This document shows positions 4,312 to 28,574 of a DNA stretch of 64,000 bases, piece by piece. The notes beneath the pieces are model-generated. The model was given only the letters and a program-made list of their open reading frames with translations, was not told the origin of the DNA and searched no databases. This stretch comes from Paracoccus sp. UBA889 (lineage in GTDB: Bacteria > Pseudomonadota > Alphaproteobacteria > Rhodobacterales > Rhodobacteraceae): assembly GCF_002294185.1 (NCBI RefSeq), contig NZ_DBFD01000050.1, one strand, 5' to 3'. How positions within the stretch are numbered: the stretch's first letter is position 1; each line of letters starts with the position of its first letter. A program made the translations under genes and the position numbers.

Positions 4312-4336
4312 GGGAGAGCCTTTCTGCGCTTGAGAA

Positions 4337-4353: not shown

Positions 4354-4369
4354 AGGTTGCATCAAAACG

Positions 4370-6613: not shown

Positions 6614-7614
6614 GCCGGCACCGCCCGTTCCAGAATGCAGGCCGCCAGATGGCCCGGCGCCTTTTCCCGCAGCGCCACCGGCGCGCGGCATTCGGCCCGC
6701 GCATGGGGACAGCGCGGCGCGAAGGCGCAGCCTGGCGGCAGGTCGGTCAGCGCCGGCACCGTGCCCGCAATCGGGACCAGCCTTTCGCCAGCGGCCAGCC
6801 CCTCGCGCGGGATCGAGTTCAGCAGACCCTGCGAATAGGGATGGCGGGTGTCGTCGAACAGGTCCATCACGCCGGCCTGTTCGACCACCGCGCCCGCATA
6901 CATGACCGCCACGTCATCGGCCATTTCCGCGACCACACCCATGTCATGGGTGATGAACAGGATCGACATGCCCAGATCCTTCTGCAGCCGCCGCATCAGG
7001 TCCAGGATCTGCGCCTGGATGGTCACGTCCAGGGCCGTCGTCGGCTCGTCCGCGATCAGCAGGGCCGGGTTGCAGATCAGGCCCATGGCGATCATCACCC
7101 GCTGCCGCATCCCGCCCGACAATTCGTGCGGATAGGCATCGACGCGGGCGGCCGCGCCGGGAATTTCGACCAGTTCCAGCATCTCGATCACCCGCTTGCG
7201 GCGCTGCGCCGCCGGCAGGGTCTCGTGCAGGAACAGCATCTCGCCGATCTGGTCGCCGATGGTGAAAAGCGGGTTCAGCGAGGACATCGGCTCCTGGAAG
7301 ATCATCGAGATGCCGGGGCCGCGCAGCCGCCGGAACCCCGCCGCGTCCAGACCCGCCAGATCGGTCAGCGATCCGTCGCGGCCGCGAAATTCCAGCCGCC
7401 CCGACCGCACCCGCCCCGAAGGCGGCAGCAGTCCCATCAGCGCCAGCGAGGTGAGCGACTTGCCCGATCCGCTTTCGCCCACCAGCGCCAGCGTCCGGCC
7501 CCGTTCAAGGCTGAAGCTGACATCGCGCAGCGCGGTCACGGCGGCGCGGCCGCGCCCGAAACTGACGCCAAGGTTCTGAACCGACAGGATCGTGTCGCTG
7601 CTGGCATCGCTCAT
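6610..7614 (-). CDS. Peptide/nickel-type ABC ATP-binding protein (OppD-like)
   Basis: [36 protein letters not shown]. Confidence 0.92.
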
Positions 7615-7618
7615 GGTT

Positions 7619-8743
7619 CTAGCCCTCTGGCGGCAGGCGGCGCGCGGCGGGTTGCGCGTCGCAGCCCAGCACGGTCATGCGCGGCTCGAACATCCGTTCC
7701 ATCACCATGTGGTTGCCCTGGCTGTCCATCGCGTCGACCCGGCTGTCCTCCAGATCGAAGACGGTGAAATCGGCCCGCGTCCCCGGCGCCAGGCCGTCGC
7801 GCCCCGACAGGCCCAGGAAGCCGCGCGGGGCCTGGGTCACGGCGCGGATGCATTCGTCGAAGGGCAGGCCCACCGCCAGCAACTTGGCGATGGTCGTGGC
7901 CATGTCATGGACCGGTCTGGCCATCGAATGGGCGTGCAGATCGGTCGAGATCGAGAACGGCCGCAGCCCGTCGGCCATCGATTCCCGCGCGGTCCTGAAG
8001 TTGAATGACGCGCCGCCATGCCCGATATCCATCAGGATGCCGCGTTCGGCCAGATCCTGCGCCATCCGGAACAGCGCCTCCGTGTCGCGGATCGAGCCTG
8101 CGGGCTTGCCGTTGAAGCAATGGGTCACGATATCGCCGGGCGTCAGGATCGCGAACACCTCGTCGATCAGCGGGGGCGGCTCGCCGACATGGACCATCAG
8201 CGGCAGGTTGGTCATCTCGGCCACCCGCTTGGCGATCCTGGCGGGGGTGATGCCCCAACTTCCCACGATCACGCCCGAGGCGCGCACCTTGATGCCGCAG
8301 ATCACGTCGCGATTGGCCTCGATCACCGCCAGCGTCCGGTCGATGTCGATGGACCGCCAGTCGATCAGCTCGGGCACCCGATTGCAGGCCACCAGCCCGA
8401 TCGAGCCGATGTTCAGGAACGCCTTGATCGTCTCGCTGGCCGGCTCGATCACATATTCGCGCAACCCGTGAAAGCTGGCCTCGCCTGCCGAACCGGCATC
8501 GGCCATCGCCGTCACGCCGGTGGGCCGCCCGGCATCGGAGGCGCGGATCGAGATATCGGTGCCGCCATGCCACACATGGACATGCAGGTCGCACCAGCCG
8601 GGCGACAGCCAGGCGCCCTTCAGGTCCAGCACCTTTGCGCCGCCCACGGGGGCACTGGCGACAAGGCCGTCATCACCCACGAAGATCTCGTCCGGGGCGG
8701 CGTCGAAGCCGGTGGCGCGGAAATTGGTCAGTTTCAGGGCCAA
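7619..8743 (-). CDS. Amidohydrolase/deacetylase family metallohydrolase (COG3964, dihydroorotase-like)
   Basis: DLHVH metal motif, GVTAMADAGSAG, GIKVRAS (carbamylated Lys), MVHVGEPP, THCFNGK, DIGHGGASF, STDLH. TTG start behind AAGGAG. Confidence 0.85.
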   Translation of the reverse strand: MALKLTNFRATGFDAAPDEIFVGDDGLVASAPVGGAKVLDLKGAWLSPGWCDLHVHVWHGGTDISIRASDAGRPTGVTAMADAGSAGEASFHGLREYVIEPASETIKAFLNIGSIGLVACNRVPELIDWRSIDIDRTLAVIEANRDVICGIKVRASGVIVGSWGITPARIAKRVAEMTNLPLMVHVGEPPPLIDEVFAILTPGDIVTHCFNGKPAGSIRDTEALFRMAQDLAERGILMDIGHGGASFNFRTARESMADGLRPFSISTDLHAHSMARPVHDMATTIAKLLAVGLPFDECIRAVTQAPRGFLGLSGRDGLAPGTRADFTVFDLEDSRVDAMDSQGNHMVMERMFEPRMTVLGCDAQPAARRLPPEG

Positions 8744-8744
8744 A

Positions 8745-9605
8745 TCAGGTCTCCTTGGCAAGTCTGGGGTCCAGCGCATCGCGCAAGCCGTCGCCGACGA
8801 TCTGCAACGACAGGACCGACAGCGCGATGGCCGCACCCGGAAAGAGGATCAGGAAGAAGGCAGTGTCGATATAGCGGCGGCCCTCGTTCACCATGATGCC
8901 CCATGTGGGGATCCTGGGATCGACGCCGACGCCCAGAAAGGACAACCCGGCCTCGGCCAGCATTGCATAGGCGAAGATGAAGGTGGCCTGCACCAGGATG
9001 GGCGACATGATGTTGCGCAGCACATGCGTGACCATGATCCTGGGCGTCCGGGTGCCCAGGGCGCGGGCGGCCTCGACATAGGGCAGTTCGCGAATGACCA
9101 GCGTCGAGGCACGCACGATCCGCGCGATGCGCGGCGCATAGACGACCGACAGCGCCAGGATCACGTTGACCATCGTGCCGCCGAAGATCGCCACCAGCGA
9201 CAGCGCCAGCAGGATGTCGGGAAAGGCCATCATCGCGTCGATCAGCCGCGACAGCGGCGTGTCCAGACGCCGGAAAAAGCCCGCGGCCAGCCCGATCACG
9301 ATACCCACCGCCGACGAGATGACGGCGACGCCGAGGCCGATCCCCAGCGAGGTCTGCCCCGCGACCAGCAAGCGGCCCAGCAGGTCGCGCCCGAAGGCAT
9401 CCGCGCCCAGCCAGTATTCGGCGCCCGGCGGCGTCAGCCGCTTGCGCACCGACATGCCGCCGATCTCGGTCACGCCCAGCGTCGGCAGCAGGAAACAGGC
9501 GGCGACGATCAGCACGAAGACGACCAGCGCCACCACCACCGCCGGCCGCTGGAACAGCAGCTTGCGGAACGACGGCGCGGCGATTGCAGGGGATGCGGCG
9601 GCCAT
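8745..9605 (-). CDS. Peptide-type ABC permease (OppC-like)
   Basis: WLGADAFGRDLLGR, EAA-loop YVEAARALG, LAEAGLSFLG. Confidence 0.92.
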   Translation of the reverse strand: MAAASPAIAAPSFRKLLFQRPAVVVALVVFVLIVAACFLLPTLGVTEIGGMSVRKRLTPPGAEYWLGADAFGRDLLGRLLVAGQTSLGIGLGVAVISSAVGIVIGLAAGFFRRLDTPLSRLIDAMMAFPDILLALSLVAIFGGTMVNVILALSVVYAPRIARIVRASTLVIRELPYVEAARALGTRTPRIMVTHVLRNIMSPILVQATFIFAYAMLAEAGLSFLGVGVDPRIPTWGIMVNEGRRYIDTAFFLILFPGAAIALSVLSLQIVGDGLRDALDPRLAKET

Positions 9606-12272: not shown

Positions 12273-13436
12273 TCAGATCGCCGCGCGGATTGCATCCAGA
12301 AGGGCCTGCTGCGCCCGTGTCGGCTGCCATCCGCTGCGCAGGGTCAGGCCGATGGGGCGCGGCACCGGCAGGCCGGGAAACGGAAGTTCCGCCACGATAC
12401 CGCGCTCGATCTCGCGCGCGGCCTGGGCTTTCGACACGCAGGCCAGATGGCGGCCGTCGCCGACCATCTCGCGCATCAGGATGACCGATCCGGTCTCGAT
12501 GATGCTGGCCGGCGGATCGAGATTCGAGTCGCGAAACAGCGCCTCGAACAGATCGCGGGTCGGCGTGCCGCGCCGTGCGACAAGCCAGGGCCGACATCGC
12601 AGGGCCGACAGCGGCGCGGGATTGTGGATCAGCGGATCATCCGGCCCGGCAAGGATAGCCAGCACGTCATCGAACAAGCGTTCCTGCACCACATCCCCGA
12701 CCGGAAGCGGCTGACGCAGCGCGCCGATGATCAGGTCGATCTCGCCCCGGCGAAGCCCCGCCAGAAGATCGCCATAGATCCCGTCCATGATGCGGATCGG
12801 CTGCCGGGGGCGGTCCTGGCGAAACCGGGCCAGCGCGCGCGGCAGGACATGGGCGCGCGACAGGGGCAGCGCGCCGATGACGATCCGACCCACCTCGCGG
12901 CCTTCCAGTTCCGCAAGCTCGGCCACGGCCTGATCCAGCTCCGCAAAGGCCAGTCGCGCCGCCAGCGCCAGCGCCGATGCCGGCCGCGAGGGCGCCACGC
13001 CGACCGCGCTGCGCTGGAACAGCGCCCGCCCCGCAGCAGCCTCGATCGCGGTGATCGCCCGGTGCAGGGTGGGCTGCGCGATCCCCAGCCGGTAGGCCGC
13101 CAGCGTGAAATTCTGCGTCTCGACGGCGGCGATCAGCGCGGTCAGCTGCGCCCGCGTCGCGGTCGTCCGAAGCCGCGGCGCGATGTCGGACATCGCCATG
13201 TCCAGACGTGCCAGCGCGCGGGCCGCGCGATGCTGGAAAAGGCGCCCCGCCTCGGTCGGGAACAGGCCCTGCCGGGTGCGCCGGAACAGGGCCGTGCCGG
13301 CCTGCGATTCAAGCTTGGCGATGGCCTGCGTCACGGCCGGTTGCGACACCAGCCCCGCCGCTGCGGCCCGCGTGACCGAGCCGCCCTCTGCGACCGCCAG
13401 GAAGACCCTCAGGTGGCGGAGGTTGCCGACAGGCAT
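12273..13436 (-). CDS. LysR family regulator with tandem N-terminal HTH domains (GalR/LigR-like)
   Basis: HTH1 (LRHLRVFLAVAEGGSVTRAA...SQPAVTQAI) and HTH2 (FTLAAYRLGIAQPTLHRAI), then a PBP2 domain (IVIGALP). Confidence 0.88.
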   Translation of the reverse strand: MPVGNLRHLRVFLAVAEGGSVTRAAAAGLVSQPAVTQAIAKLESQAGTALFRRTRQGLFPTEAGRLFQHRAARALARLDMAMSDIAPRLRTTATRAQLTALIAAVETQNFTLAAYRLGIAQPTLHRAITAIEAAAGRALFQRSAVGVAPSRPASALALAARLAFAELDQAVAELAELEGREVGRIVIGALPLSRAHVLPRALARFRQDRPRQPIRIMDGIYGDLLAGLRRGEIDLIIGALRQPLPVGDVVQERLFDDVLAILAGPDDPLIHNPAPLSALRCRPWLVARRGTPTRDLFEALFRDSNLDPPASIIETGSVILMREMVGDGRHLACVSKAQAAREIERGIVAELPFPGLPVPRPIGLTLRSGWQPTRAQQALLDAIRAAI

Positions 13437-14293
13437 AGCGCCTCTTCGATCATCGCCAGGCGCTGCATCAGGTCGCCCTCGCGCTCGTGCAGGCCCAGAT
13501 CGCCGATCCTTTGCTGCCATGCGACCGTGGCGCGGGCGAGATCCGCGGGCAATCCCAGCCCTTCGACGGTCTTGGCGACCTCGCGCATCTCGGCGGCGCG
13601 GCGCAGCCCGTGCTGCATCATCCGTTCGGTATTGTAGGCGGCCTTCGCCGCCCAGTCCGTGGCCGGATCGGAGGCTTGCAGCGAATCCAGCACATCCTGC
13701 AGAACGCCCGCCCGTCGTGCCGACAGAAGGCATTCCGCGGCCAGCGCCTCCATCCCCTTGATCATCACCGAGCGGATCATCTTGATCGCCGAGGCCGAAC
13801 CGATGCGGGGGCCGCGCCAGCGATACTGCATGTTCATGCGATCCAGGAAGTCCAGCGCCGTTTCGGGGCCCGCGATCAACAGCGGCGTGCGGTGCAACCG
13901 GGGTCGGATCGGCGCCATGATCGCCATATCGACATAGGTTGCGCCGGCATCGCCGATCATCGTCGCCGCCTCGCGCTTGCTGTCGGGGGCGCAGGAATTT
14001 CCGTCATACCAGACGCTTGCCGCCGCCAGATGCGGTGCCGCCTGCCGGGCGGCCTCGACCGCCTGATCGGCGGTGACGAGGCACAGGACATGCCGCGCGC
14101 CCGCCAGCACGACAGGGGCCGGCCCGCAGGCGACATCCAGATCCGTCGCGGCATCGCGAAGGGGCTGCGCCTGGGCGCCATCCAGCTTGGTGTCCCAGGC
14201 CGCGATGGCACCGGCAAAGCCCTCGTCACGCCAGCCCTTCGCGACCGCGCGGCCGGCCTCTCCGAAGCCGATGAAGGCGATTTCTGCGCTCAT
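13409..14293 (-). CDS. NAD(P)-dependent oxidoreductase, 6PGDH/3-hydroxyisobutyrate-DH-like, with DUF1932-type C-terminus
   Basis: Rossmann motif IAFIGFGEAG, DGNSCAP, ASAIKMIRSVMIKG, HGLRRAAEMREV. Confidence 0.8.
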   Translation of the reverse strand: MSAEIAFIGFGEAGRAVAKGWRDEGFAGAIAAWDTKLDGAQAQPLRDAATDLDVACGPAPVVLAGARHVLCLVTADQAVEAARQAAPHLAAASVWYDGNSCAPDSKREAATMIGDAGATYVDMAIMAPIRPRLHRTPLLIAGPETALDFLDRMNMQYRWRGPRIGSASAIKMIRSVMIKGMEALAAECLLSARRAGVLQDVLDSLQASDPATDWAAKAAYNTERMMQHGLRRAAEMREVAKTVEGLGLPADLARATVAWQQRIGDLGLHEREGDLMQRLAMIEEALCLSATSAT

Positions 14294-14354
14294 GTCGATT
14301 TCCTTTCGAAACCTGGCGGAATATTGCCCCGCCGGGCCGCGCCCGCCAACCCGT

Positions 14355-14371
14355 CATAGCCGGAACTTATG
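14355..14371. promoter_or_regulatory. LysR-type T-N11-A dyad (CATA-N9-TATG)
   Basis: CATAGCCGGAACTTATG in the divergent oxidoreductase/galB intergenic. Confidence 0.55.
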
Positions 14372-14449
14372 CATTGGCGTGGATTTCTGAATTGCCTGCG
14401 GTGGGGCCGGGATGCGATCTGGTCGGCAGCACAACTCAGGGAGAATGGA

Positions 14450-15181
14450 ATGCCGGAGCCCGGAACCGCGCTGGTCTTCAGCGCCCATGCCGCGGATTTC
14501 GTCTGGCGCTGCGGCGGCGCCATCGCGCTGCATTCCCGGATGGGGTATCAGGTGACGGTGGCCTGCCTGTCCTTTGGCGAACGCGGCGAAAGCGCGCGGC
14601 TGTGGAAGGACGGCAAGGCGCTGGACCAGATCAAGGCAATCCGCCGGGCCGAGGCCGAGGCGGCGGCCGAGGTGCTGGGCGTGCACCGGCTGGAATGTTT
14701 CGATCTGGGCGATTACCCGCTGCATCTGGACCGCGAGGACAAGTTCCGGCTGGTCGACCTGATTCGCGAGGTGCAGCCGCGCTTCATGCTGAGCCACAGC
14801 CAGCATGATCCCTACAACACCGACCACATGCAGACGACCCAGGTGGTGCTGGAATGTCGCATGGTCGCGCAGGCCTGGGGTCACGATCCCGGCCAGAAGG
14901 TGCTGGGCGCACCGCAGCTTTACCTGTTCGAGCCGCACCAGACCGAACAGATGGGCTGGAAACCCGACACCTTCCTCGACATCACCCCGGTCTGGGACCA
15001 GAAGCGGGCCGCGATGGAACAGATGAACGGACAGGCCCATCTGTGGGAATATTACACCCGCGTGGCGCAGCAGCGCGCCAACCATTTCAAGCGCAATTCC
15101 GGCGGTCAGTCGGGCGGGCGCGATTGCCGATATGCCGAAGGATTCCAGTCGATCTTTCCCCGAACCGTGGACGAATTGTGA
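14450..15181 (+). CDS. galB: 4-oxalomesaconate hydratase (PIG-L family)
   Basis: SAHAADFVWRCGGAIALH, SFGERGESA, DPYNTDH, FEPHQTEQ, HLWEYYTRVA match P. putida GalB as I recall it. Confidence 0.92.
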   Translation: MPEPGTALVFSAHAADFVWRCGGAIALHSRMGYQVTVACLSFGERGESARLWKDGKALDQIKAIRRAEAEAAAEVLGVHRLECFDLGDYPLHLDREDKFRLVDLIREVQPRFMLSHSQHDPYNTDHMQTTQVVLECRMVAQAWGHDPGQKVLGAPQLYLFEPHQTEQMGWKPDTFLDITPVWDQKRAAMEQMNGQAHLWEYYTRVAQQRANHFKRNSGGQSGGRDCRYAEGFQSIFPRTVDEL

Positions 15182-15252
15182 TGCCTGAGGCCCCGATCAT
15201 CGGCAGGGTGGCGATCGAAGCCATGCTGCGGAAACCCTGGAAAGGCTGATTC

Positions 15253-15924
15253 ATGGCTGTTGTCGTCCAGAACATCGTCCGCGCCGACGCGGAAGTCATC
15301 GCCGGTCTGTCCGAGGTCGGCGTCGCGACCGTTCACGAGGCCCAGGGCCGTCGTGGCTGTCTGTCCAGCCGGATGCGGCCGATCTATCCCGGCGCCCGCA
15401 TCGCCGGCAGTGCCGTCACCATCAGCGCGCCGCCCGGCGACAACTGGATGGTCCATGTCGCCATCGAGCAGTTGCGCGACGGCGACATCCTGGTTCTTGC
15501 CCCCACCTCGCCCTGCGAGGACGGCTATTTCGGCGATCTGCTGGCGACCAGCGCGATGGCGCGGGGCTGCCGGGGGCTGGTGATCGACGCCGGCGTCCGC
15601 GATGTCCGCGACCTGACGGAGATGCGATTCCCGGTCTGGTCGCGGGCCATCAGCGCGCAGGGCACCGTGAAGGCAACGCCGGGATCGGTGAACGTGCCCA
15701 TCACCTGCGGCAATCAGGCGATCGAGGCGGGCGATGTGATCGTGGCCGATGACGACGGCGTCTGCGTCATCCGCCGCGCCGAAGCCCTGACCGTGCTGGC
15801 CGCTGCCCGCAAGCGGATCGAGGCCGAGGAGGCCAAGCGGCAGCGACTTGCCGCCGGCGAGCTTGGCCTCGACATCGATGACATGCGCGGCAGGCTGGAG
15901 GCGAAGGGGCTGCGCTACATCTGA
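15253..15924 (+). CDS. galC: 4-carboxy-4-hydroxy-2-oxoadipate (CHA/HMG) aldolase
   Basis: [50 protein letters not shown] (LigK/GalC family). Confidence 0.93.
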
Positions 15925-16010
15925 GGGGCGGGGGCGGTCCGGCCGCGGCGGGCCGAGCGCGGCCGCTTGGCCAAGAAAGGGTATTTGGGCAACGAAGAAG
16001 GGCTGAAAGG

Positions 16011-17069
16011 ATGCGCGACGAGGACGGGATTGCCTGCCTGTGGATGCGCGGCGGCACATCGAAGGGGGCGTATTTCCTGAAGGACGACCTGCCCGCCGAT
16101 CCGGCCGGCCGCGACGCCTTGCTGCTGTCGATCATGGGCAGCCCCGATCCGCGACAGATCGACGGGATCGGGGGCGCGGACCCGCTGACCTCGAAGGTCG
16201 CGGTCCTGTCGCGGCCCAGCCGTGCGGATGCGGATGTGGATTACCTGTTCCTTCAGGTCTTCGTCGACCGGGCCCTGGTCAGCGCCGCGCAGGGTTGCGG
16301 CAATATCCTGGCCGGGGTCGGCCCGGCCGCGATCGAACGAGGCCTGGTCCGCGTCGCAGGCGCGCAGACACCGGTTCGCATCCACATGGTCAATACCGGC
16401 GAGATTGCGACGGCCATCGTTCAGACCCCCGATGGCAGGGTCAGCTATGCGGGCGATTGCAGCATCGACGGTGTGCCGGGGCAGCACGCCCCGATCCTGC
16501 TGATGTTCGACGACGTGTCGGGGTCCATGTGCGGTGCCCTGCTGCCCAGCGGCCAGGCGGTCGATGTGATCGACGGGATCGAATGCACGCTGATCGACAA
16601 CGGCATGCCCTGCGTGATCCTGCGCGCCGATGCGGTCGGCCGGACCGGATGCGAGGATCGCGAGGCGCTGGATGCCGATGCCGAATTGAAGACGCGGCTG
16701 GAGGCGATCCGGCTGCAGGCGGGGCCGATGATGAACCTGGGCGATGTGCGCGAGAAATCGGTGCCCAAGATGACGCTGGTTTCGGCCCCGCAGGCAGGCG
16801 GCGCCATCTCGACCCGCAGTTTCATTCCGCATCGCTGCCATGCCTCGATCGGGGTGTTCGCGGCCGTCAGCGTGGCGACGGCCTGCACCTTGCCCGGATC
16901 GCCCGCCGCATCCGTCGCGCGGATGCCGCAGGGCGATGGAGTCGCCGTCGAACATCCGGGTGGCGCGGCCCAGCTGCGGCTGGAGCGCGACGATCAGGGC
17001 CGCGTAACCCGCGCCGGCGCGATGCGCACCGCGCGCAAGCTGTTCGACGGGCATGTCTTTCCCGCCTGA
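16011..17069 (+). CDS. galD: 4-oxalomesaconate tautomerase (PrpF family)
   Basis: MRGGTSKG, GSPDPRQIDGIGG, CGNILAGVGP, IDNGMP, SFIPHRCHASIGV, VEHP. Confidence 0.92.
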   Translation: MRDEDGIACLWMRGGTSKGAYFLKDDLPADPAGRDALLLSIMGSPDPRQIDGIGGADPLTSKVAVLSRPSRADADVDYLFLQVFVDRALVSAAQGCGNILAGVGPAAIERGLVRVAGAQTPVRIHMVNTGEIATAIVQTPDGRVSYAGDCSIDGVPGQHAPILLMFDDVSGSMCGALLPSGQAVDVIDGIECTLIDNGMPCVILRADAVGRTGCEDREALDADAELKTRLEAIRLQAGPMMNLGDVREKSVPKMTLVSAPQAGGAISTRSFIPHRCHASIGVFAAVSVATACTLPGSPAASVARMPQGDGVAVEHPGGAAQLRLERDDQGRVTRAGAMRTARKLFDGHVFPA

Positions 17070-17081
17070 GCGAGCCCGGTC

Positions 17082-18185
17082 TCAGCGAAGTCTGCGGAGC
17101 TGCGCCTCGCGCACCAGCGCCGCCATCCGGTAGAAGCCATGCGCCATCTTGGAATAGGGCGTGACCAGGAAGAAGGCCAGCACCAGCCCCAGATGCAGCG
17201 CCAGCAACGGGCCGGTCAGCGCCGTGCCCCGCAGCGCGTAGAGGACAAGTCCGGTCAACCCCGCCAGACCCAGCGTCCAGATGAAGGCATTCTCGCCCCC
17301 CGACCGGCCCGGCGCACCCAGTCCGGGATCGGCCTTGCCGCGCAGGACGATCATGCCGAAGCAGCCCGCCACCAGCAGCAGGCCGCCGGGAATGCCCAGC
17401 AGCTTGGGCAGTGAGAACAGGCCGTAGGGCGCCGGCATGTCCAGCAGGTAGTGCATCACCGTGGCCACGCTGGTCGCGGCGAAGCACAGCAGGAACCCGT
17501 ACATGATCGCCTGGTGCACATGACGCCGGGCATTGCTGTAGCGTTCGCCCTTTTCGAAGTTGCATCCCTGACCCTGCCCGCCCGACAGGTTCCGCATCGT
17601 CCCGGCCGAGATCGCGGCCTCGCGCAGATCATGCAGCGTGACGGCCTGCCCGCCGACCTCGTGCCAATAGGACCGCAATCCCATCGCGATGGCCGCCAGC
17701 GGCAACAGGAAGGCCGGCAGGAAGATCGCCACCATCGCGCCGTGGCCCAGCCAGGCATAGAAGCCCGGGCCTTCGCCCGGCAGGGCGGCGATGGCAAGGA
17801 TCATCGCAGCGATGCCCAGCACGATGGCCACGACCAGCCCGGCCGCGTGGCTTTGCAGCAGGCGGGCCAGCCCCGAGGGCCAGGCAAAACGTTCCCAGCT
17901 GTCGACCCGCGCGGCGCCGAGAGCCTTTGGCAGGTTCAGGTCGAATTCGTGCGGCGCGGTATATTGGCAGGCATGGTAGCATCCCCTGCAATTGTGGCAC
18001 AGATTGGCCAGTTGGGTGATGTCGCCGCTGGCAAAGACCTTGTTGCGGGTGATTGCCGGAAAGACCGAACAATAGCCCTCGCAATAGCGGCAGGCATTGC
18101 AGATCTCGATCTGGCGCCGGGCTTCCTGCACCGGATCGTCCGAAATGGCGCCGGGATCGGTCTGCAGGGTGACGTCAAGCGACAT
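17082..18185 (-). CDS. tcuB: Tricarballylate utilization 4Fe-4S membrane protein
   Basis: ICNACRYCEGYC and LCHNCRGCYHACQY clusters, HQAIMYGFLLCFAAT, PYSKMAH. Confidence 0.9.
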   Translation of the reverse strand: MSLDVTLQTDPGAISDDPVQEARRQIEICNACRYCEGYCSVFPAITRNKVFASGDITQLANLCHNCRGCYHACQYTAPHEFDLNLPKALGAARVDSWERFAWPSGLARLLQSHAAGLVVAIVLGIAAMILAIAALPGEGPGFYAWLGHGAMVAIFLPAFLLPLAAIAMGLRSYWHEVGGQAVTLHDLREAAISAGTMRNLSGGQGQGCNFEKGERYSNARRHVHQAIMYGFLLCFAATSVATVMHYLLDMPAPYGLFSLPKLLGIPGGLLLVAGCFGMIVLRGKADPGLGAPGRSGGENAFIWTLGLAGLTGLVLYALRGTALTGPLLALHLGLVLAFFLVTPYSKMAHGFYRMAALVREAQLRRLR

Positions 18186-19584
18186 GGGCGGCGGCCTCCT
18201 GTCCGGCGATGCGTCCGAAGACGGTGCCGATGGTCATGCCGAACCCGGCCAGATAGCCCTGACCCAGAATCGAGCCGGCCATCATCTCTCCGGCACTCCA
18301 GATGTTTTCGTAAGGCCCTTCGGGACCGGTCGCGCGGGCATGGCGGTCCACCTTCAGGCCCAGATAGGTGAAGGTCACGCCGGGGCGCAGGGAATAGGCA
18401 TAGAACGGCGGCTGCTCGATGGCGCGCGCCCAGTTCGTCTTGGCGGGCGTCAGGCCGCTGGTCGCCAGGCCGTCCAGTTCCTGCGGGCGGAACTGGCCCT
18501 CGCGGCAGGCGGCGTTGAAACCGGCGATCGTGTCGGCGACCGCATCGACCGGCAGGCCCAGCTTGCCGGCCAGATCCGGGATCGTGTCGGCGGTGATCGG
18601 CGGATAGACCGACGGCATGAACAGGTCGATCGAGCGGCTGTCGATGATCGAATAGGCGACCTGATCGGGCTGCTCGGCGACCAGCCGGCCCCAGATCGCA
18701 TAGCGTTTCGGCCAGACATCCTCGCCCTCGTCATGGAATCGCTGGCCATCCCTGTTGACGACGATCGAGAAGGGCACGCAATCCAGCCGCGTCACGATGC
18801 CGCCGTCGAATTTCGGCGCGCGCCCGTCGATGGCGACGGCGTGACATTGTGTCGGATCGCCCACGGTCAGCGCACCCTGATCGACCATGTCCCGCAGCAG
18901 GACACCGCGATTATAGGGTGTGCCGCGGATCAGGAAATTGCGCGCGGACGGGCCCCAGGCGCGGGCCAGCCAGTCGATATCGGCCTGGAACCCGCCCGAG
19001 GCCAGCACGAAGGCGCGGCCGGCGATGCTGATGATCTGGCCGCCGATGCTGGCGATGACATGGGTGGCCCGGCCTCCCTCGATGCCGACATGGCTGACTT
19101 GCGCGTCATAGGCGACGGTGACGCCCAGGTCCTGCGCGGTCAGGTAATAGGCATTGACCAGCGCCTTGCCGCCGCCAAGGAAGAAGGCATTGGTGCGGTC
19201 CAGCGACAGCGTGCCCGCCAGCGAGGGCTGGAACCGCACGCCATGGGCCTGCATCCAGGGCAGACATTCGGCCGAGTTGCGGATCGCGTGCCGGGCCAGT
19301 TCCTCGTCGGTTTCGCCCCTGGTGACGCGCAGCAGGTCCTGCCAGAATTCCTCCTCGTCATAGGTCTCGACCAGCGGACCCAGATCGCCGTGATGCATGC
19401 AGCGGAAATTGCGGGTATGGCGCGAATTTCCGCCGCGATAGGCATGGGGCGCACCTTCCAGGATCAGGACCCGGGCCCCCGCCTCGGCCGCCTCGATCGC
19501 CGCGCAGAGCGCCGCGTTGCCGCCGCCGGCGATCACCACGTCCCATGTTTGGCCTGCCAGCGATCGCGAAAGACCGTCAGTCAC
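18175..19584 (-). CDS. tcuA: FAD-dependent tricarballylate dehydrogenase
   Basis: GGGNAALCAA, RGGNSRHTRN, TNAFFLGGGKAL, DEGEDVWPKRYAIWGRL, RPGVTFTYLGLKV match Salmonella TcuA as I recall it. Confidence 0.93.
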   Translation of the reverse strand: MTDGLSRSLAGQTWDVVIAGGGNAALCAAIEAAEAGARVLILEGAPHAYRGGNSRHTRNFRCMHHGDLGPLVETYDEEEFWQDLLRVTRGETDEELARHAIRNSAECLPWMQAHGVRFQPSLAGTLSLDRTNAFFLGGGKALVNAYYLTAQDLGVTVAYDAQVSHVGIEGGRATHVIASIGGQIISIAGRAFVLASGGFQADIDWLARAWGPSARNFLIRGTPYNRGVLLRDMVDQGALTVGDPTQCHAVAIDGRAPKFDGGIVTRLDCVPFSIVVNRDGQRFHDEGEDVWPKRYAIWGRLVAEQPDQVAYSIIDSRSIDLFMPSVYPPITADTIPDLAGKLGLPVDAVADTIAGFNAACREGQFRPQELDGLATSGLTPAKTNWARAIEQPPFYAYSLRPGVTFTYLGLKVDRHARATGPEGPYENIWSAGEMMAGSILGQGYLAGFGMTIGTVFGRIAGQEAAAHVA

Positions 19585-20233
19585 GTTCCGCCTCGTCTTT
19601 CTGTCTCAGGATGCGCAGCCGGGTCAGTTGGGCGCGTTCCATGTGTTCGCGCATCGCGGCCTCGGCGCGCTGTCCGTCGCGGGCGGCAAGAGCGTCGAGG
19701 ACCGCCTCGTGTTCTTCGACCGCCTGCCGGGCGCGTTCCGGCGCAGCCATCGCCGAGGGGCCCAGGATCAGCAGCGTGTTCTCGACGCTGGCCGCCGCGC
19801 GCAGCAGGAACCGGTTGCGCGCCGCGTCCAGCAACCGGGCGTGGAATTGCCGGTTCAGGCGAACCAGGCGGGCGGCATCCTCGACCGCGCGGGCCATCTC
19901 GGCGTTGATCGAACGCAGCGCCTCCAGCTCCATCGGCGAGGCGGCGCGGGCCGAAAGCCGCGCGGCGGTGCCTTCCAGCACCGTCCGCATCTCGTAAAGC
20001 TCCATGATTTCGGGATAGGCCAGCTGTCGGACGACGGCGCCGCTGCGGGGCTGGTGATCGACCAGGCCGTCGGCCTCCAGCCGTCGGATCGCCTCGCGCA
20101 CCGGGGTCCGGCTGACGCCGAGGCGGGCGGCAAGCTCGGTCTCGGTCAGTCGTGCGCCGGGGCGGATCGTGCCCGACCGGATCTGTTCGCAAAGCCTGTC
20201 ATAGACGCCCTCACCCTGCAGGGTGCGCCGCAT
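19577..20233 (-). CDS. GntR family regulator (FCD domain)
   Basis: ETELAARLGVSRTPVREAIRRL; FCD with FH...N...EH. Start uncertain (20233 or 20269). Confidence 0.88.
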   Translation of the reverse strand: MRRTLQGEGVYDRLCEQIRSGTIRPGARLTETELAARLGVSRTPVREAIRRLEADGLVDHQPRSGAVVRQLAYPEIMELYEMRTVLEGTAARLSARAASPMELEALRSINAEMARAVEDAARLVRLNRQFHARLLDAARNRFLLRAAASVENTLLILGPSAMAAPERARQAVEEHEAVLDALAARDGQRAEAAMREHMERAQLTRLRILRQKDEAERD

Positions 20234-20268
20234 GCCGTCGCCTGATCCGGATTTCGGACTTTCGGTCA

Positions 20269-20296
20269 TGCATCCAGTCGTATACATCAGGATGCA
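20269..20296. promoter_or_regulatory. Candidate GntR operator
   Basis: Inverted repeat TGCATCC-N14-GGATGCA with central GTATAC between divergent GntR and AbrB genes. Confidence 0.55.
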
Positions 20297-20399
20297 AAAG
20301 GGTCAAGTCCGGATGGGCCGGATCTGTTCCAAAGGCATCGAAGGGGCCGGTGCGCCGGCTTGCCGCCCCGGGCGCATTCTGGCAAAGGCTTTGCACATC

Positions 20400-21449
20400 A
20401 TGCAGAAACCTGCGCGCATAGGCCGGCCTGGCCGGATGATCGTGACCTTCGCGCTGGCTCTGGCCGGGGCGGGGCTGTTTCTGGTCCTGAACCTGCCCCT
20501 GCCCTGGTTGCTGGGGCCGATGCTGGCATGCCTGATCGCGGCGTTGCTGGGCGCCCCCCTGCGCGGCGCCGGCGGCTTCAGCACCTTCATGCGGACCTTC
20601 CTGGGGGTGGCGGTCGGCGCATCCATCACCCCTGAAGTGCTGGCCGGCCTGCCCGAAATCGCGGCCTCGCTGGCGCTGGTGCCGATCTTCATCGCGATCA
20701 TCGCGATGGTCGGCTATCCGCTGTTCCGGCGTGTCTTCGGCTTCGATCATGCCACCGCCTGGTATGCGGCGATGCCGGGCGGCCTTCAGGACATGCTGGT
20801 CTTCGGCGAAGAGGCGGGCGGCGACGTGCGGGCGCTGTCGCTGATTCATGCGACGCGGGTGCTGGTGATCGTGACCGTGGCGCCGCTGATCATGCGCATC
20901 TACTGGGGCGTCGATCTGGCGCGGCCGCCGGGCGCCTCGATCGCGGGCTATTCGGCGTCCCAGATCGCGCTCATGGTCGCGGCGGGTTTCCTGGGCTGGA
21001 AGCTGGCGGAACGGGCCGGATTGTTCGGCGCCTCGATCCTGGGGCCGCTGATCCTGACCATGATCCTGTCGCTGAGCGGCATCGTCCAGAACCGCCCCCC
21101 GGCCGAGATCATCCAGGCGGCGCAGTTCTTCATCGGCATCGCGGTGGGGGTGAAATATGTCGGCATCTCGGCGCGCGAATTGCGCATCGACGTGACGGCG
21201 GGGCTGGTTTATGCCGTCGTGCTGGCGCTGATCAGCCTGGTTTTCATCGAGGGGATCGTGACGCTGGGCCTGGCGCCGGGGCTGGAGGCGTTTCTGGCCT
21301 TCCTGCCGGGCGGGCAGGCCGAGATGACCGTGATCGCGATCATCGCCGGCGCCGATCTGGCCTATGTCGTCAGCCACCACCTGCTGCGGATCATGATCGT
21401 GATCCTGTTGGCGCCGATCGTCGCGCGGCTATTCCGGCGGCGCGAATAG
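20400..21449 (+). CDS. AbrB-family integral membrane protein (PF05145-like)
   Basis: LPLPWLLGPM, AMPGGLQDM, LIHATRV, duplicated halves, LPGGQAEM, HHLLR. Confidence 0.85.
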   Translation: MQKPARIGRPGRMIVTFALALAGAGLFLVLNLPLPWLLGPMLACLIAALLGAPLRGAGGFSTFMRTFLGVAVGASITPEVLAGLPEIAASLALVPIFIAIIAMVGYPLFRRVFGFDHATAWYAAMPGGLQDMLVFGEEAGGDVRALSLIHATRVLVIVTVAPLIMRIYWGVDLARPPGASIAGYSASQIALMVAAGFLGWKLAERAGLFGASILGPLILTMILSLSGIVQNRPPAEIIQAAQFFIGIAVGVKYVGISARELRIDVTAGLVYAVVLALISLVFIEGIVTLGLAPGLEAFLAFLPGGQAEMTVIAIIAGADLAYVVSHHLLRIMIVILLAPIVARLFRRRE

Positions 21450-24033: not shown

Positions 24034-24048
24034 ATCAATATTGCGGAT
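24034..24048. promoter_or_regulatory. LysR-type dyad ATC-N9-GAT (T-N11-A)
   Basis: ATCAATATTGCGGAT, about 60 bp upstream of the DUF1445 start. Confidence 0.55.
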
Positions 24049-24106
24049 AAGTGAGCGCTTGATTCAATCGGTTTCGTCAGGAATCCTTGTCGGAGAGGAG
24101 AACCGG

Positions 24107-24970
24107 ATGATCCAGCCCCAGCCGCAACCCCAGCCCCGTCTTGCCGATCCGCGCATTCTGCGCGCCCGGATCCGCGACGGGCTGTTCGATGGCCCTACGG
24201 CGGGCCTTTGCGGTGATGCGTTGCAGGCCAATCTTGTGATCCTGCCGGGCGAGGAGGCGTCCGATTTCCTGCGCTTCTGCCAGGCCAATCCGCGCCCATG
24301 CCCGCTGCTGGCCGTGGGCGAGCCTGGCGATCCATCGCTGCCGGCGCTGGGCGACGGCATCGACCTGCGCCATGATCTGCCGCGCTATCGCGTCTGGCGC
24401 CGGGGCGCGCTGGCCGACGAGCCGGCCGACATCGCCGATCTGTGGCGGAATGACATGGTGTCCTTCGCGCTGGGCTGTTCCTTCAGCTTCGAGGATGCGC
24501 TGCTGCGCGCCGGGATCGCGGTGCGGCATCAGGAAACCGGCCGGAACGTGCCGATGTATCGCACCAGCCTGCCGACCAGGCCCGCCGGGCGCTTTTGGGG
24601 GCCGCTGGTCGTATCGATGCGGCCGATGCGGGCGGCCGAGGCGATCGAGGCCGTGCAGATCTGCGCGGGCTTTCCGCTGGCCCATGGCGCGCCGGTCCAT
24701 CTGGGCGATCCGGCGCTGATCGGTATCGCGGATGTGATGGCACCCGATTACGGCGACCCGCCCGAGTTCCGCCAGGGCGAGATTCCGGTCTTCTGGGCCT
24801 GCGGGGTGACGCCACAGGCCGCAATCGCCGCCGCCCGGCCCGATCTGGCGATCACCCATGCGCCCGGCCACATGCTGGTCACCGACATTCCCGCCGGTCG
24901 CGCGACGGCGCGGCTGACCGGGGTCCATGCCGATCTGCCCATAAAAACCCAACAGGAGAGACTGACATGA
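24107..24970 (+). CDS. Putative hydro-lyase (DUF1445/YcsI, D-glutamate cyclase-like)
   Basis: [67 protein letters not shown]. Confidence 0.9.
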
Positions 24971-25998
24971 AACTTGCAAAAGCCCTGCTGACCGGAACCG
25001 CGCTGCTGGCCTCGCCGGCCATGGCCGAGGAACTGGCCGTCGTCGGAAGCTGGTCGAACCTGCCGCTGTATCAGGATTTCGAGTCGCCCTTCTGGACCGA
25101 GAAGCTGCCGCAGATGACGGATGGCGAATTCACCGCGCAACTGACCAGTTTCGACCAGATGGGCATCGCCGGCGCCGATGTCTACCGGATGCTGGGCGAC
25201 GGGGTCTTCGATGTCGGCTCGACCGTGGCCGATTACACGGTCGGCGATGCGCCCGAACTGGAAGGTCTGGACGTGCCGCTGATCGCCAACACGCCCGCCG
25301 AGGCCCGAAGCATGGTCAAGGCCGCCCGCCCGATGGTCGAGGAGATCATGCGCAATCGCTTCAATGCCGAGGTTCTGGGCATCGCGCCCTATCCGCCGCA
25401 GGTCGTGTTCTGCAAGGGCGAGGTCGGTTCGCTGGCCGATCTGGAGGGCAAGAAGATCCGCGGCTCGGGCCGGATGACGACCAAGCTGCTGGAGGCTCTG
25501 GGCGCGGAAGGCGTCAACATCGCCTTTTCCGAAGTGCCCGGCTCGCTGGAGCGGGCCGTGATCGACTGTGCCGTGACCGGCGCCGGGTCTGGCTATTCCG
25601 CCGGCTGGTGGGAGGTGACGGACACGCTGATGGTGCTGCCGCTGGGCGGCTGGGATCCGGTGGTGATCGCGATGAATGGCGACCGTTACGACGGGCTTTC
25701 CGGGGATCAGCAGTCGATGCTGAAATCGGCCGTGGCCGAGGGGCTGGAAGCGCCCGCCTGGGACGCCGCGCAAGGCGGGCTGGAAGGCGACATCGCCTGC
25801 CTGACGGGCCAGGGCGAATGTGCGGCCGGCGATGCGGCCTCGATGACGCTGGTGCAGCCGTCCGAGGCCGATCTCGCGGCGGCGCGGAAAGTGCTGGAAG
25901 ACGAGGTTCTGCCCGACTGGGCCAGCCGCGCCGGCGCGGAATGGGTCGCGCGCTGGAATGATTCGGTCGGCAAGGCCGTCGGCGTGACCGTCCAGTAG
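24967..25998 (+). CDS. dctP: TRAP substrate-binding protein (DctP6/7-like subfamily)
   Basis: Signal peptide, [27 protein letters not shown]. Confidence 0.88.
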
Positions 25999-26011
25999 CG
26001 CCCGCGCCGCC

Positions 26012-26557
26012 ATGATCGACGCAACCCTTGGCGCGCTGCGGCGCGCGAACCGGGCCATAGCCCTGATCCTGGGCGCGGGCCTGATCCTGACCGTGCTTTT
26101 CATCCTGACGGATGTGATCCTGCGCAAGCTGGGCAGCGCCAGCCTGGGCGGGTCGGACGAGATCTCGGGTTATGTCATGGCGGCGGTCGCAAGCTGGGGG
26201 CTGGCCTGCGCCCTGCTTGAACGGGCCCATGTCCGCATCGACGTGATCCGGCTGAAGCTGGCCCGGCCCGCGCAGATGGCGATGGACCTGTTCGCGATGC
26301 TCGTGACCAATGGCGTCGTGCTGCTGATCGCCTGGCAAAGCTGGCCGGTGCTGGGCAAGACGCTGGAACGCGGCTCGCGCGCGAACACGCCGCTGGAGAC
26401 GCCCTTGTGGATTCCGCAAGGCATCTGGTTCGCCGGCTGGCTGTGGTTCGCGATCAGCGCCACCGCGCTGTCGCTGATCGGAATCGCATTTTTGCAGGCC
26501 GCGCGGCGGGACGATTTCGACACCGTGCTGGGCATTGGATCCGAGGTGCCGGAATGA
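26012..26557 (+). CDS. dctQ: TRAP small permease
   Basis: Four hydrophobic segments, DEISGY, HVRIDV, PLWIPQ. Confidence 0.88.
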   Translation: MIDATLGALRRANRAIALILGAGLILTVLFILTDVILRKLGSASLGGSDEISGYVMAAVASWGLACALLERAHVRIDVIRLKLARPAQMAMDLFAMLVTNGVVLLIAWQSWPVLGKTLERGSRANTPLETPLWIPQGIWFAGWLWFAISATALSLIGIAFLQAARRDDFDTVLGIGSEVPE

Positions 26558-27837
26558 TCTGGACCACTGCCATCGCGCTGCTGGGCCTGATGGCCCTGTC
26601 GATCCCGGTGGGCATCGTGCTGTTCCTGCTGGGTATTGGCGTGGGCCAGTTCTATTCGGCCTTTCCGCTGCTGCGCGGGATGGGGCAGGTGATCTGGTCG
26701 TCGTCCAATTCCTCGACCCTGATCGCCATTCCGCTGTTCGTCCTGCTGGGCGAAATCCTGGTGCGCGGCGGCGTGGCCGAACGCACCTATGCGGCGCTGG
26801 ACAAGTGGCTGTCATGGCTGCCGGGCGGTCTGGTCCATGCCAATATCGCGACGGCGACCATGTTTTCGGCCACGTCCGGATCGTCGGTGGCCACCGCCGC
26901 GACCGTGGCCACCGTGGCCATGCCGCAGGCCGAGCGGCTGAACTATGATCCGCGGCTGTTTTCCGGCGCCATCGCGGCCGGCGGCACGCTGGGAATCCTG
27001 ATCCCGCCCTCGATCAACCTGATCGTCTATGGCTTCCTGACCGAAACCTCGATCCCGCGCCTGTTTTCGGCCGGGCTGGTCCCCGGCCTGCTGATGGCCC
27101 TGGCCTTCATCGCGGTCACGGCGGCGATCTGCTGGGTGCGGCCGGGGCTGGGCGGGCCTTCGCGCGGCTTTTCCTGGGCCGAACGGGCGCGGTCGCTGAC
27201 CCAGCTTGTGCCGATCGTGGTGCTGTTCGTGGTCGTGATCGGGTCGATCTATGCGGGTTGGGCGACGCCCACGGAAAGCGCGGCCATCGGCGTGGCCATC
27301 GCGGCGCTGATCGCGATCCTGCTGGGTGACGGTCTGGGTCCACGCGCCCTGTCCGAGGCGCTGCACGGCACCATCCGCATCTCGGCGATGATCATGCTGG
27401 TGGTGACGGGGGCGACGTTTCTGAACTTTGCCATGACCTCGGCCGGGCTGGGGCGGCAACTGACCGATCTGATCGGGGGATCGGGGCTGTCGCCCTTTGG
27501 CACGCTGCTGCTGGTCATCGCGCTGTATCTGGTGCTGGGCTTTTTCATCGAGACCTTGTCGCTGATGGTCGCGACCATCCCCATCGTGGTGCCGATCATT
27601 GCCGGGCTGGGCTATGACAAGGTGTGGTTCGGGGTGCTGTTGATCGTGCTGATCGAGATGGCGCTGATCACGCCGCCGGTGGGCCTGAACCTGTTCGTGG
27701 TTCAGGGGGCGCGGAAATCCGGCCCCATGAGCGACGTGATCATGGGCGTGATTCCCTATGTTCTGGTAATGCTGACGATGATCGCGGCACTGGTCGCGTT
27801 GCCGGGGCTGGCCTTGTGGTTGCCCTCGGTGCTGTGA
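26554..27837 (+). CDS. dctM: TRAP large permease
   Basis: IAIPLFVLLG, SGSSVATAA, GGTLGILIPPS, ITPPVGLNLFV. Confidence 0.92.
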   Translation: MIWTTAIALLGLMALSIPVGIVLFLLGIGVGQFYSAFPLLRGMGQVIWSSSNSSTLIAIPLFVLLGEILVRGGVAERTYAALDKWLSWLPGGLVHANIATATMFSATSGSSVATAATVATVAMPQAERLNYDPRLFSGAIAAGGTLGILIPPSINLIVYGFLTETSIPRLFSAGLVPGLLMALAFIAVTAAICWVRPGLGGPSRGFSWAERARSLTQLVPIVVLFVVVIGSIYAGWATPTESAAIGVAIAALIAILLGDGLGPRALSEALHGTIRISAMIMLVVTGATFLNFAMTSAGLGRQLTDLIGGSGLSPFGTLLLVIALYLVLGFFIETLSLMVATIPIVVPIIAGLGYDKVWFGVLLIVLIEMALITPPVGLNLFVVQGARKSGPMSDVIMGVIPYVLVMLTMIAALVALPGLALWLPSVL

Positions 27838-27850
27838 AAGGAAATGGAAG

Positions 27851-28516: not shown

Positions 28517-28574
28517 CGGCCGCCCTTCCAGATGACCGCGAGGGCACCCGCCCGATGGCAAGGATCGCGCCGCG

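Follow-up and report, generated by a model that had tools for sequence, protein, structure and literature searches.

An orphan galBCD set beside tcuAB in Paracoccus, a putative deletion derivative of a VOC-type gallate operon, and its association with tricarboxylate modules in Rhodobacterales

Gene content of the gal-tcu locus

We analyzed a 64,000-nucleotide stretch of DNA from Paracoccus sp. UBA889 (Rhodobacterales; assembly GCF_002294185.1), referred to here as the window, which corresponds to C41:75327-139326 in a 3.25-Mb genome that is 97% complete and divided into 79 contigs. Our subject is the locus at window positions 12273-21449, where galB, galC, and galD, which encode the lower pathway of gallate degradation, lie next to tcuAB, which encodes tricarballylate dehydrogenase and its membrane partner. 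Genes were called as open reading frames (ORFs) supported by GC3 and were then scanned with Pfam and NCBIfam models (Table 1). GalC, GalD, TcuA, and TcuB each score above curated NCBIfam equivalog cut-offs; a further model in the test of TcuA and TcuB, NF011607, reached 365 bits, under its cut-off of 524. GalB residues 33-269 align with residues 3-238 of the Pseudomonas putida GalB chain (5CGZ), and GalB is 70-89% identical to its counterparts in relatives. Conservation within the GalB ORF begins near residue 27-33, and translation may therefore start further downstream than the ORF does.

The galBCD genes are divergent from a gene pair that encodes a DUF1932 oxidoreductase and a LysR-family regulator, tcuB is convergent with galD, and a gene for an AbrB-duplication membrane protein is divergent from gntR-tcuAB. 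We inspected the junction between the two halves and found that 12 nucleotides separate the galD and tcuB stops. These findings bear out the first-pass annotation, which had been made from the sequence alone: Pfam, NCBIfam, and PDB matches agree with its identities for galB, galC, galD, the LysR regulator, the DUF1932 oxidoreductase, and tcuAB, and it had correctly placed the end of the gal operon 12 bp from tcuB and described the two halves as convergent with separate regulators. Independent contigs from metagenome runs span galB, the galB-galC spacer, galC, galD, and the tcuB junction with zero insertions or deletions, which shows that the layout did not arise as an assembly artifact.

Table 1. 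Coordinates of the features discussed, in the window unless a locus (L) or contig (C) handle is given
Feature	Location	Strand	Evidence
LysR-family regulator	12273-13436	-	Pfam HTH_1 (two) and LysR_substrate
DUF1932/NAD_binding_2 oxidoreductase	13409-14293	-	Pfam PF09130 and PF03446
GalB, PIG-L-fold 4-oxalomesaconate (4-carboxy-2-hydroxymuconate, CHM) hydratase	14369-15181	+	PDB 5CGZ match, E 1.4e-90
Type I (VOC) extradiol dioxygenase gene, probable deletion scar	15182-15252	+	Match to relatives' VOC gene
GalC, RraA-fold aldolase for CHA (4-carboxy-4-hydroxy-2-oxoadipate) and HMG (4-hydroxy-4-methyl-2-oxoglutarate)	15253-15924	+	NF006731 372.8 bits (cut-off 179); TIGR02798 363.4 bits (cut-off 304.5)
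GalD, PrpF-fold 4-oxalomesaconate tautomerase	16011-17069	+	NF033377 517.6 bits (cut-off 440)
TcuB, membrane Fe-S partner of tricarballylate dehydrogenase	17082-18185	-	TIGR02484 348.4 bits (cut-off 246.6)
TcuA, FAD-dependent tricarballylate dehydrogenase	18175-19584	-	NF006130 665 bits (cut-off 369)
GntR/FCD regulator, first gene of the tcuAB operon	19577-20287	-	Pfam GntR and FCD
AbrB-duplication membrane protein	20223-21449	+	PF05145 266 bits; TIGR03082 matched
PrpF paralogue with tcuAB	L101:12190-13338		NF033377
PrpF paralogue with tcuAB	L102:4470-5570		NF033377
PrpF paralogue with tcuAB	L103:5652-6767		NF033377
PrpF paralogue, same genome as the window	C16:5418-6512		NF033377
Module B, same genome as the window	C16:~2000-9200
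Module B	L107:5590-15390
Module B	L109:5696-16170
Metagenome cluster with DUF1932 and RraA-like genes	L119:4685-14539
Metagenome cluster with DUF1932 and RraA-like genes	L123:4100-14704

The galB-galC spacer resembles a remnant of a VOC dioxygenase gene

We compared the locus with 20 kb around galB from seven relatives. In four relatives of the same genus (L014-L017), galB and galC are separated by a gene of roughly 960 bp for a two-domain vicinal oxygen chelate (VOC) protein of 317-338 amino acids, a type I extradiol dioxygenase. The same gene lies between galB and galC in L018, from the same order, at whose locus we found no match for LysR, DUF1932, or galD. In the PDB, the VOC protein matches 9wgj best (E 8e-107), with catechol and homoprotocatechuate 2,3-dioxygenases next in rank. 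About 55 of the 80 closest GalB loci in a collection of species genomes carry the VOC gene.

In the window, the galB-galC gap is only 71 nucleotides and reads as a 22-codon mini-ORF (MPEAPIIGRVAIEAMLRKPWKG, then a stop). Three parts of this spacer match the VOC gene, and they are co-linear with its 5' end, an internal block, and its 3' end. The start of the mini-ORF, MPE.P, resembles the VOC start, with the 5' match in register in one relative, L016. The middle of the spacer matches VOC nucleotides ~290-325, best in L017 (27 of 32 positions with a 4-nucleotide gap), at a local alignment score of 32 compared to a maximum of 29 among 300 shuffles. At its end, the spacer reads GAAAGGCTGA, then two or three bases, then CATGGC, which in L014-L016 corresponds to the VOC stop and the start of galC. 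Spliced alignment of the spacer to the VOC gene gave z = 3.8-4.9 for the four relatives of the same genus and 2.5 for L018. In a tree of GalB, GalC, and GalD combined, the window nests among VOC-positive Paracoccus loci and groups with L014 and L015.

Taken together, these matches indicate that the spacer is very probably the deletion scar of a VOC dioxygenase gene. The operon thus appears to be of aromatic ancestry, derived from a galB-VOC-galC-galD ancestor whose VOC gene would have been deleted in the lineage of the window. The first-pass annotation had overlooked this apparent origin by deletion from a VOC-bearing operon. In our literature search we found neither a VOC-type gallate dioxygenase, nor VOC-type gal operons, nor orphan galBCD sets in Rhodobacterales described.

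Two Paracoccus loci also carry a gene for a metallo-beta-lactamase (MBL)-fold hydrolase between galB and the VOC gene (L015:8627-9676 and L016:8617-9483). This protein could be a lactone hydrolase of the type that acts on 2-pyrone-4,6-dicarboxylate (PDC). We rejected it as a conserved member of the pathway, as it occurs in these two Paracoccus loci only and in 0 of the 80 surveyed loci.

Ring-cleavage genes are absent from the locus and the genome

We found no ring-cleavage gene within 12273-21449. GalA, LigB, DesB, and DesZ are members of the LigB family, and its Pfam model PF02900 has no match in the whole 3.25-Mb genome at its 97% completeness. Likewise, tblastn searches of the genome with LigA, LigB, a LigI/J-like amidohydrolase_2 protein from L019, the VOC dioxygenase, and the MBL hydrolase returned no homologue, while LigC returned weak, generic GFO/IDH/MocA matches only. 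The absence of upper-pathway genes reported in the first-pass annotation is therefore confirmed at the locus and extends genome-wide for the LigB family, LigA, and LigI. The genome contains no replacement dioxygenase; the rings of gallate and protocatechuate therefore cannot be opened by the cell in this way.

Orphan galBCD sets recur across Rhodobacterales

We next considered an even sample of 401 Rhodobacterales genomes, 63 of which are GalB-positive, counting the genome of the window. Genomes that lack both an intact VOC orthologue and a strong match of the LigB type, with E 1e-45 as the limit, are referred to here as orphans. Ten of the 63 genomes are orphans (G000, G078, G091, G132, G141, G231, G422, G389, G461, and G038). 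Apart from the genome of the window, eight of them are 99-100% complete and one is 94% complete.

Two orphans retain visibly decayed VOC genes. The galB-galC interval of G389 holds a VOC pseudogene that runs over three frames and contains two stops (L110:~3017-3880), and the VOC gene of G461 breaks off after residue 203 (L112:9228-9839). The galB, galC, and galD genes of both genomes align over near-full length at 64-83% identity. VOC fragments with a stop are also seen at G070:C1:566937-567222. VOC decay in G389, G461, and G070 appears to have been independent.

We compared two orphans of one genus, G422 and G231 (dS about 0.5-0.65), and their dN/dS values are 0.06 for GalB, 0.11 for GalC, 0.17 for GalD, and 0.19 for DUF1932. 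These low values indicate that galB, galC, and galD are under purifying selection in orphan genomes. The lower pathway is therefore kept by selection in at least one lineage without a recognizable feeder.

One way to account for an orphan set is that the pathway is still aromatic and that the ring-cleavage enzyme was missed, either because it falls within the 3% of the genome that is not assembled or because it belongs to an unrecognized family. The division of the assembly into 79 contigs at 97% completeness leaves room for this, and half of the genomes with a VOC-less gal cluster (7 of 14) hold a VOC orthologue elsewhere. However, the copy within the operon has demonstrably been deleted, no VOC, LigA, LigB, or LigI-like sequence is found in the 3.25 Mb, and the nine other sampled orphans, most of them essentially complete, also have neither type of enzyme. 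We consider a hidden dioxygenase highly improbable.

Orphan galBCD sets are associated with tcuAB and a tricarboxylate module

We found tcuA within 25 kb of galB in 5 of the 10 orphans compared to 1 of the 53 other GalB-positive genomes (Fisher p 2e-4 by genome, 0.003 by genus). The two genes are adjacent in G000, 13 kb apart in G231 and G422, 16 kb apart in G141, and 22 kb apart in G389. The only tcu-linked genome that bears a dioxygenase is G458, with the co-directional order galB-VOC-galC-galD-gntR-tcuA-tcuB (arrangement given for L106). In the tree of GalB, GalC, and GalD, tcu-linked gal loci occupy five or more separate positions.

A second set of genes, referred to here as module B, shows a similar pattern. 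Module B comprises genes of the tripartite tricarboxylate transporter (TTT) type (TctE/D, a long TctC, and a fused TctBA of about 666 amino acids), a PrpF protein, a thiamine pyrophosphate (TPP) enzyme of about 556 amino acids, and a D-2-hydroxyacid dehydrogenase (2HADH), sometimes with an enzyme of the isocitrate dehydrogenase family and sometimes with a second RraA-like protein, as in L107. It usually lies within about 10 kb of tcuAB and, in tcu-linked genomes, usually between gal and tcu. With the TPP enzyme at >=64% identity (at least 64%) as the marker, module B is present in 7 of the 10 orphans compared to 2 of the 53 others (Fisher p 7e-6 by genome, 1.6e-4 by genus). All three visibly decayed VOC genes (those of the window, G389, and G461) are in genomes that carry these modules. 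In L089, a locus from a metagenome-assembled genome (MAG) with 55% GC, the genes tcuA-tcuB-DUF1932-galB-galC-galD-tctC-tctA-prpF are co-directional.

We had first regarded the adjacency of gal and tcuAB as incidental, since none of the seven relatives has tcuAB within 10 kb of galB and tcuAB was found in the vicinity of just 1 of the 80 closest GalB loci. The enrichment of orphans near tcuAB among the 63 genomes led us to withdraw this as the sole explanation. The first-pass annotation had noted galBCD and DUF1932 as paired with tcuAB. Proximity of orphan galBCD to tcuAB recurs in G231, G422, G141, and G389; DUF1932 with galBCD is mostly found without tcuAB.

These results bear on a second explanation, namely that the leftover gal genes are a functionless relic headed for loss and that their adjacency to tcuAB is an accident of island rearrangement. 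The scar is consistent with this explanation in that the feeder enzyme was lost, as are the sporadic occurrence of both galB and tcuA in Paracoccus, the lack of tcuAB within 10 kb of gal in galBCD relatives of the same genus and its scarcity near the 80 closest GalB loci, and a gal half without a transporter. On the other hand, all five genes of the gal half are intact, galB, galC, galD, and DUF1932 are under strong purifying selection in other orphan lineages, the VOC genes of G389 and G461 show visible decay but the galB, galC, and galD genes around them align over near-full length, and orphans are linked to tcuAB and module B far above the rate in dioxygenase-bearing genomes. A decaying relic therefore seems unlikely to us.

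The tcu module and its PrpF paralogues

Between the TcuA of the window and its orthologues in other Rhodobacterales, some of them from genomes that lack gal genes, identity is 74-84%; for instance, G001 has a TcuA orthologue at 74% and no galB. In Paracoccus, tcuA, like galB, occurs sporadically. The gntR-tcuAB gene order recurs in L101, L102, and L106-L111, and in Paracoccus relatives an AbrB gene followed by gntR-tcuA-tcuB is convergent with genes for TctC, a fused TctBA (666 amino acids), and a PrpF paralogue. The gene for the AbrB-duplication protein (PF05145) adjoins tcuAB in most genomes examined (L101, L102, L103, L107-L109, and L111), on the gntR side wherever gntR is present, and no TcuC-type carrier of the major facilitator superfamily (MFS) was found in the examined genomes with this arrangement. 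The AbrB-duplication protein is a candidate tricarballylate carrier in place of TcuC. The true start of its gene is probably downstream of the ORF start.

The position of galD in the window, convergent with tcuB, is that of the PrpF gene in Paracoccus relatives. We asked whether GalD could be a chimera of gal-type and tcu-type PrpF proteins, which would explain the tcuB junction. This was rejected because the identity profile of GalD is gal-type over its whole length: GalD is 73-76% identical to GalD of relatives and 45-51% identical to tcu-associated PrpF paralogues. The paralogue in the genome of the window (~50% identical) is on contig C16. PrpF paralogues that occur with TTT and tcuAB genes, with no galB or galC nearby, score 465-498 bits with NF033377, whose cut-off is 440. 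The model alone is therefore not specific for GalD, and the orthology of GalD in the window rests on its identity to the GalD proteins of gal operons. The NCBIfam name "4-oxalomesaconate tautomerase" is probably over-applied to these paralogues, which may be aconitate-type isomerases. PrpF-family aconitate isomerases, TarA and TbrA, act in the assimilation of trans-aconitate (PMC11495376).

The DUF1932 oxidoreductase and the LysR regulator

The DUF1932 gene is found in about 40 of the 80 gal loci, whether these are of the VOC type, of the LigAB type, or of neither. A literature search for DUF1932 returned nothing on this protein family. The nearest PDB sequences to the DUF1932 protein of the window are 4EZB and 3QSG, and its closest structures, 1I36 among them, are uncharacterized. 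We examined an AlphaFold model of the protein (pLDDT 95.6). Foldseek matched the model to 3-hydroxyisobutyrate dehydrogenase (HIBADH), gamma-hydroxybutyrate dehydrogenase, and tartronate semialdehyde reductase with a probability of 1.0 and TM scores of 0.69-0.75. The modeled protein has the features of the HIBADH superfamily, namely an N-terminal Rossmann site, an all-helical C-terminal domain, and a conserved lysine. Across 31 homologues there is no variation at G9 and G11 (the Rossmann glycines), at D34, or at K171, and K171 is the presumed catalytic lysine. We predict that DUF1932 is an NAD(P)-dependent oxidoreductase with the fold of beta-hydroxyacid and semialdehyde dehydrogenases. As a candidate, we considered DUF1932 as a general replacement for LigC and rejected it, as L019 has both LigC and DUF1932 and L091-L093 have LigC-like matches together with DUF1932.

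The DUF1932 protein of L089 is 33% identical to that of the window, and its metagenome relatives occur in two arrangements. The first is tcuA-tcuB-DUF1932 with aconitase-family, RraA-like, and amidohydrolase_2 genes (L119), and the second is TctC-TctA-DUF1932-RraA-like with aconitase-family, PrpD, and Ldh_2 genes nearby. VOC and LigAB queries gave no match in these metagenome loci, where the Pfam scan covered part of each flank. Since relatives of the L089-type DUF1932 lie beside RraA-like, TTT, and tcuAB genes with no dioxygenase match, DUF1932 and an RraA-fold aldolase also appear together in clusters that look like non-aromatic tricarboxylate catabolism.

The first-pass annotation had proposed a specific route, in which DUF1932 oxidizes 2-hydroxy-4-carboxyadipate, TcuAB desaturates the resulting 2-oxo acid to 4-oxalomesaconate (OMA), and GalD, GalB, and GalC complete the pathway. 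The proposal joins established chemistry to an analogy: tricarballylate relates to aconitate as 2-oxo-4-carboxyadipate relates to OMA. The gene order in L089, the order tcuA-tcuB-DUF1932 followed by aconitase-like and RraA-like genes in L119, and the enrichment of orphans for tcuAB linkage all speak for it. However, TcuA and TcuB score as tricarballylate dehydrogenase equivalogs and are 74-84% identical to orthologues in other Rhodobacterales; G001 has a TcuA orthologue but no galB; 3 of the 10 orphans lack TcuA; DUF1932 is present in many VOC-type and LigAB-type clusters without tcuAB; and the two halves of the locus are convergent with separate regulators. Furthermore, to our knowledge 2-hydroxy-4-carboxyadipate is not a known natural product. 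We judge this route improbable.

The LysR protein (385-387 amino acids) has two tandem HTH_1 domains that are 35% identical to each other, followed by one substrate-binding domain. It is PcaQ-like, but its score of 206.6 bits with the TIGR02424 PcaQ model falls short of the cut-off of 303.8. This long form can be aligned over its full length in relatives from several genera, which indicates a conserved architecture and not a local duplication. The DUF1932 gene stop overlaps the LysR start by 28 nucleotides, and the two genes are probably co-transcribed.

Comparison with known systems

The gal cluster of P. putida KT2440 encodes GalA, GalD, GalB, GalC, GalR, GalT, and GalP. The locus in the window resembles it in its PIG-L-type GalB, RraA-fold GalC, PrpF-fold GalD, and divergent LysR gene. 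Unlike the P. putida cluster, the window has no GalA (and its genome no LigB-family gene), no GalT permease, and no GalP porin, and it has in addition the DUF1932 dehydrogenase and a regulator with a double helix-turn-helix (HTH). The ancestral ring-cleavage enzyme of the window would have been VOC-fold, not LigB-fold. The VOC-type gal operons of Paracoccus and of many other Rhodobacterales and Rhizobiales share the LysR-DUF1932 pair divergent from galB...galC-galD, and the window proteins are 73-89% identical to those of same-genus loci and nest in their clade. They differ in that the VOC gene of the window is reduced to the 71-nucleotide scar and that the MBL hydrolase of two relatives is absent.

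The 4,5-cleavage pathway by which Sphingobium sp. SYK-6 degrades protocatechuate comprises LigAB, LigC, LigI, LigU, LigJ, and LigK. It shares with the gal genes the intermediates OMA and CHA and the end products, with GalD corresponding to LigU and GalC to LigK. In contrast, the window has no LigAB, LigC, or LigI, and its hydratase is of the PIG-L type (GalB) and not an amidohydrolase (LigJ). With tcuRABC of Salmonella enterica, the tcu half has in common a TcuA flavoprotein and a TcuB Fe-S membrane partner encoded by overlapping genes, but the window has a GntR/FCD regulator instead of the LysR-type TcuR and the AbrB-duplication protein instead of the MFS carrier TcuC. In relatives, the tcu locus, unlike that of Salmonella, is joined to genes for TctC, fused TctBA, PrpF, the TPP enzyme, and a 2-hydroxyacid dehydrogenase.

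Genomic surroundings and environmental distribution

The locus is flanked on its 5' side by an unrelated cluster of Dpp-type ABC transporter and amidohydrolase genes. On its 3' side lie an RHE_PE00001-like gene, a D-glutamate cyclase gene, TRAP genes, and a gene whose product has the carboxyltransferase C/D domain known from 5-oxoprolinase subunits. Among these, the D-glutamate cyclase, TRAP DctP/DctQ/DctM, DUF2848, and carboxyltransferase C/D-domain genes stand in a row at 24041-29312 (+), which looks like a cluster for pyroglutamate or D-glutamate utilization. Promoter and terminator scans gave nothing above shuffled background.

Sampling of 31-mers from the segment 13409-19584 showed 94-98% of them to be present in each of 19 public runs, which date from 2014-2025. 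Of these runs, fourteen carry the label of marine or seawater metagenome DNA; the rest are given as one metatranscriptome, two organism-labeled runs, and one unlabeled run. Either the organism is widespread, or it recurs as a contaminant.

Discussion

Our data suggest that the locus is a dioxygenase-less derivative of a VOC-type gallate operon that abuts an ordinary Rhodobacterales tricarballylate module. In the first module, GalD tautomerase, GalB hydratase, and GalC aldolase would convert OMA to pyruvate and oxaloacetate. The second module, gntR-tcuA-tcuB with the AbrB-type protein, would convert tricarballylate to cis-aconitate. We hypothesize that the cell still employs galD, galB, galC, and DUF1932, with a C7 tricarboxylate, ring-opened or non-aromatic, as the substrate, either imported or formed nearby, and that tcuAB would carry on with its usual tricarballylate reaction; we favor this reading by a modest degree. 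The substrate would presumably be of the OMA or CHA type and, if not imported, be made by the neighboring tricarboxylate enzymes; we infer that the gal module is not simply decaying.

The non-aromatic entry suggested in the first-pass annotation thus survives in its broader form, which has circumstantial support from selection on orphans, the enrichment of tcuAB and module B, the L089 arrangement, and the distant DUF1932 clade beside RraA-like, TTT, and tcuAB genes. Its specific TcuAB route is improbable, given the orphans without TcuA and the ordinary character of TcuA in the window. A direct enzymatic coupling to TcuAB, although possible, is the less likely kind of link, and TcuAB cannot serve as the feeder everywhere. 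The first-pass annotation also offered that the locus may scavenge OMA released by other microbes, a conceivable alternative; no transporter is dedicated to the gal half.

A more extended proposal, which we put forward tentatively and consider doubtful, is that GalD, GalB, GalC, and DUF1932 form the end of a CoA-independent, beta-oxidation-like route for a non-aromatic C7 tricarboxylate. Such a route would consist of uptake through a carrier of the TTT or AbrB type, TcuAB-type desaturation, isomerization, hydration, oxidation by DUF1932, and aldol cleavage. VOC, LigAB, and GalA would then be optional feeders, repeatedly lost in marine Rhodobacterales that carry the TTT-PrpF-TPP-2HADH module and tcuAB.

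Several observations weigh against continued use of the gal module on such a substrate. Module B of the genome of the window is on a different contig, C16, and not beside gal. Among the 10 orphans, 3 lack TcuA and 3 lack the module-B marker. The orphan classes and thresholds were fixed after the data were seen, and, because related islands may have spread by transfer, the association counts are not fully independent. The dN/dS of the window genes against relatives is 0.11-0.38, a value that cannot be dated relative to the deletion. Full-length galB matches are found in 5 of 37 genomes of the genus, including that of the window, and this sporadic occurrence is compatible with an accessory island that may merely be in decay. 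No transporter gene lies between 12273 and 17069, so that the gal half, placed between the Dpp-type ABC cluster and the tcu module, has none of its own, and the gal and tcu halves are convergent, each with a separate regulator. Finally, the sole metatranscriptome that holds the locus has a flat, DNA-like contig depth and is therefore uninformative on expression.

The OMA lower pathway is treated as a purely aromatic funnel for lignin and tannin, and its genes are used as markers in genomes and metagenomes. We found that about one-sixth of galB-bearing Rhodobacterales genomes keep the lower pathway without a usable ring-cleavage enzyme and that these genomes tend to be those carrying tricarboxylate uptake and oxidation modules. 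The NCBIfam model for 4-oxalomesaconate tautomerase, moreover, also names PrpF paralogues without gal partners. The main value of our analysis lies in this comparative pattern, by which an unrecognized use of the oxalomesaconate pathway becomes open to experiment. Should the link be functional, it would point to an unrecognized marine tricarboxylate substrate and pathway, it would give a first functional handle on DUF1932, and counts of galBCD or ligK would overstate the potential for aromatic degradation.

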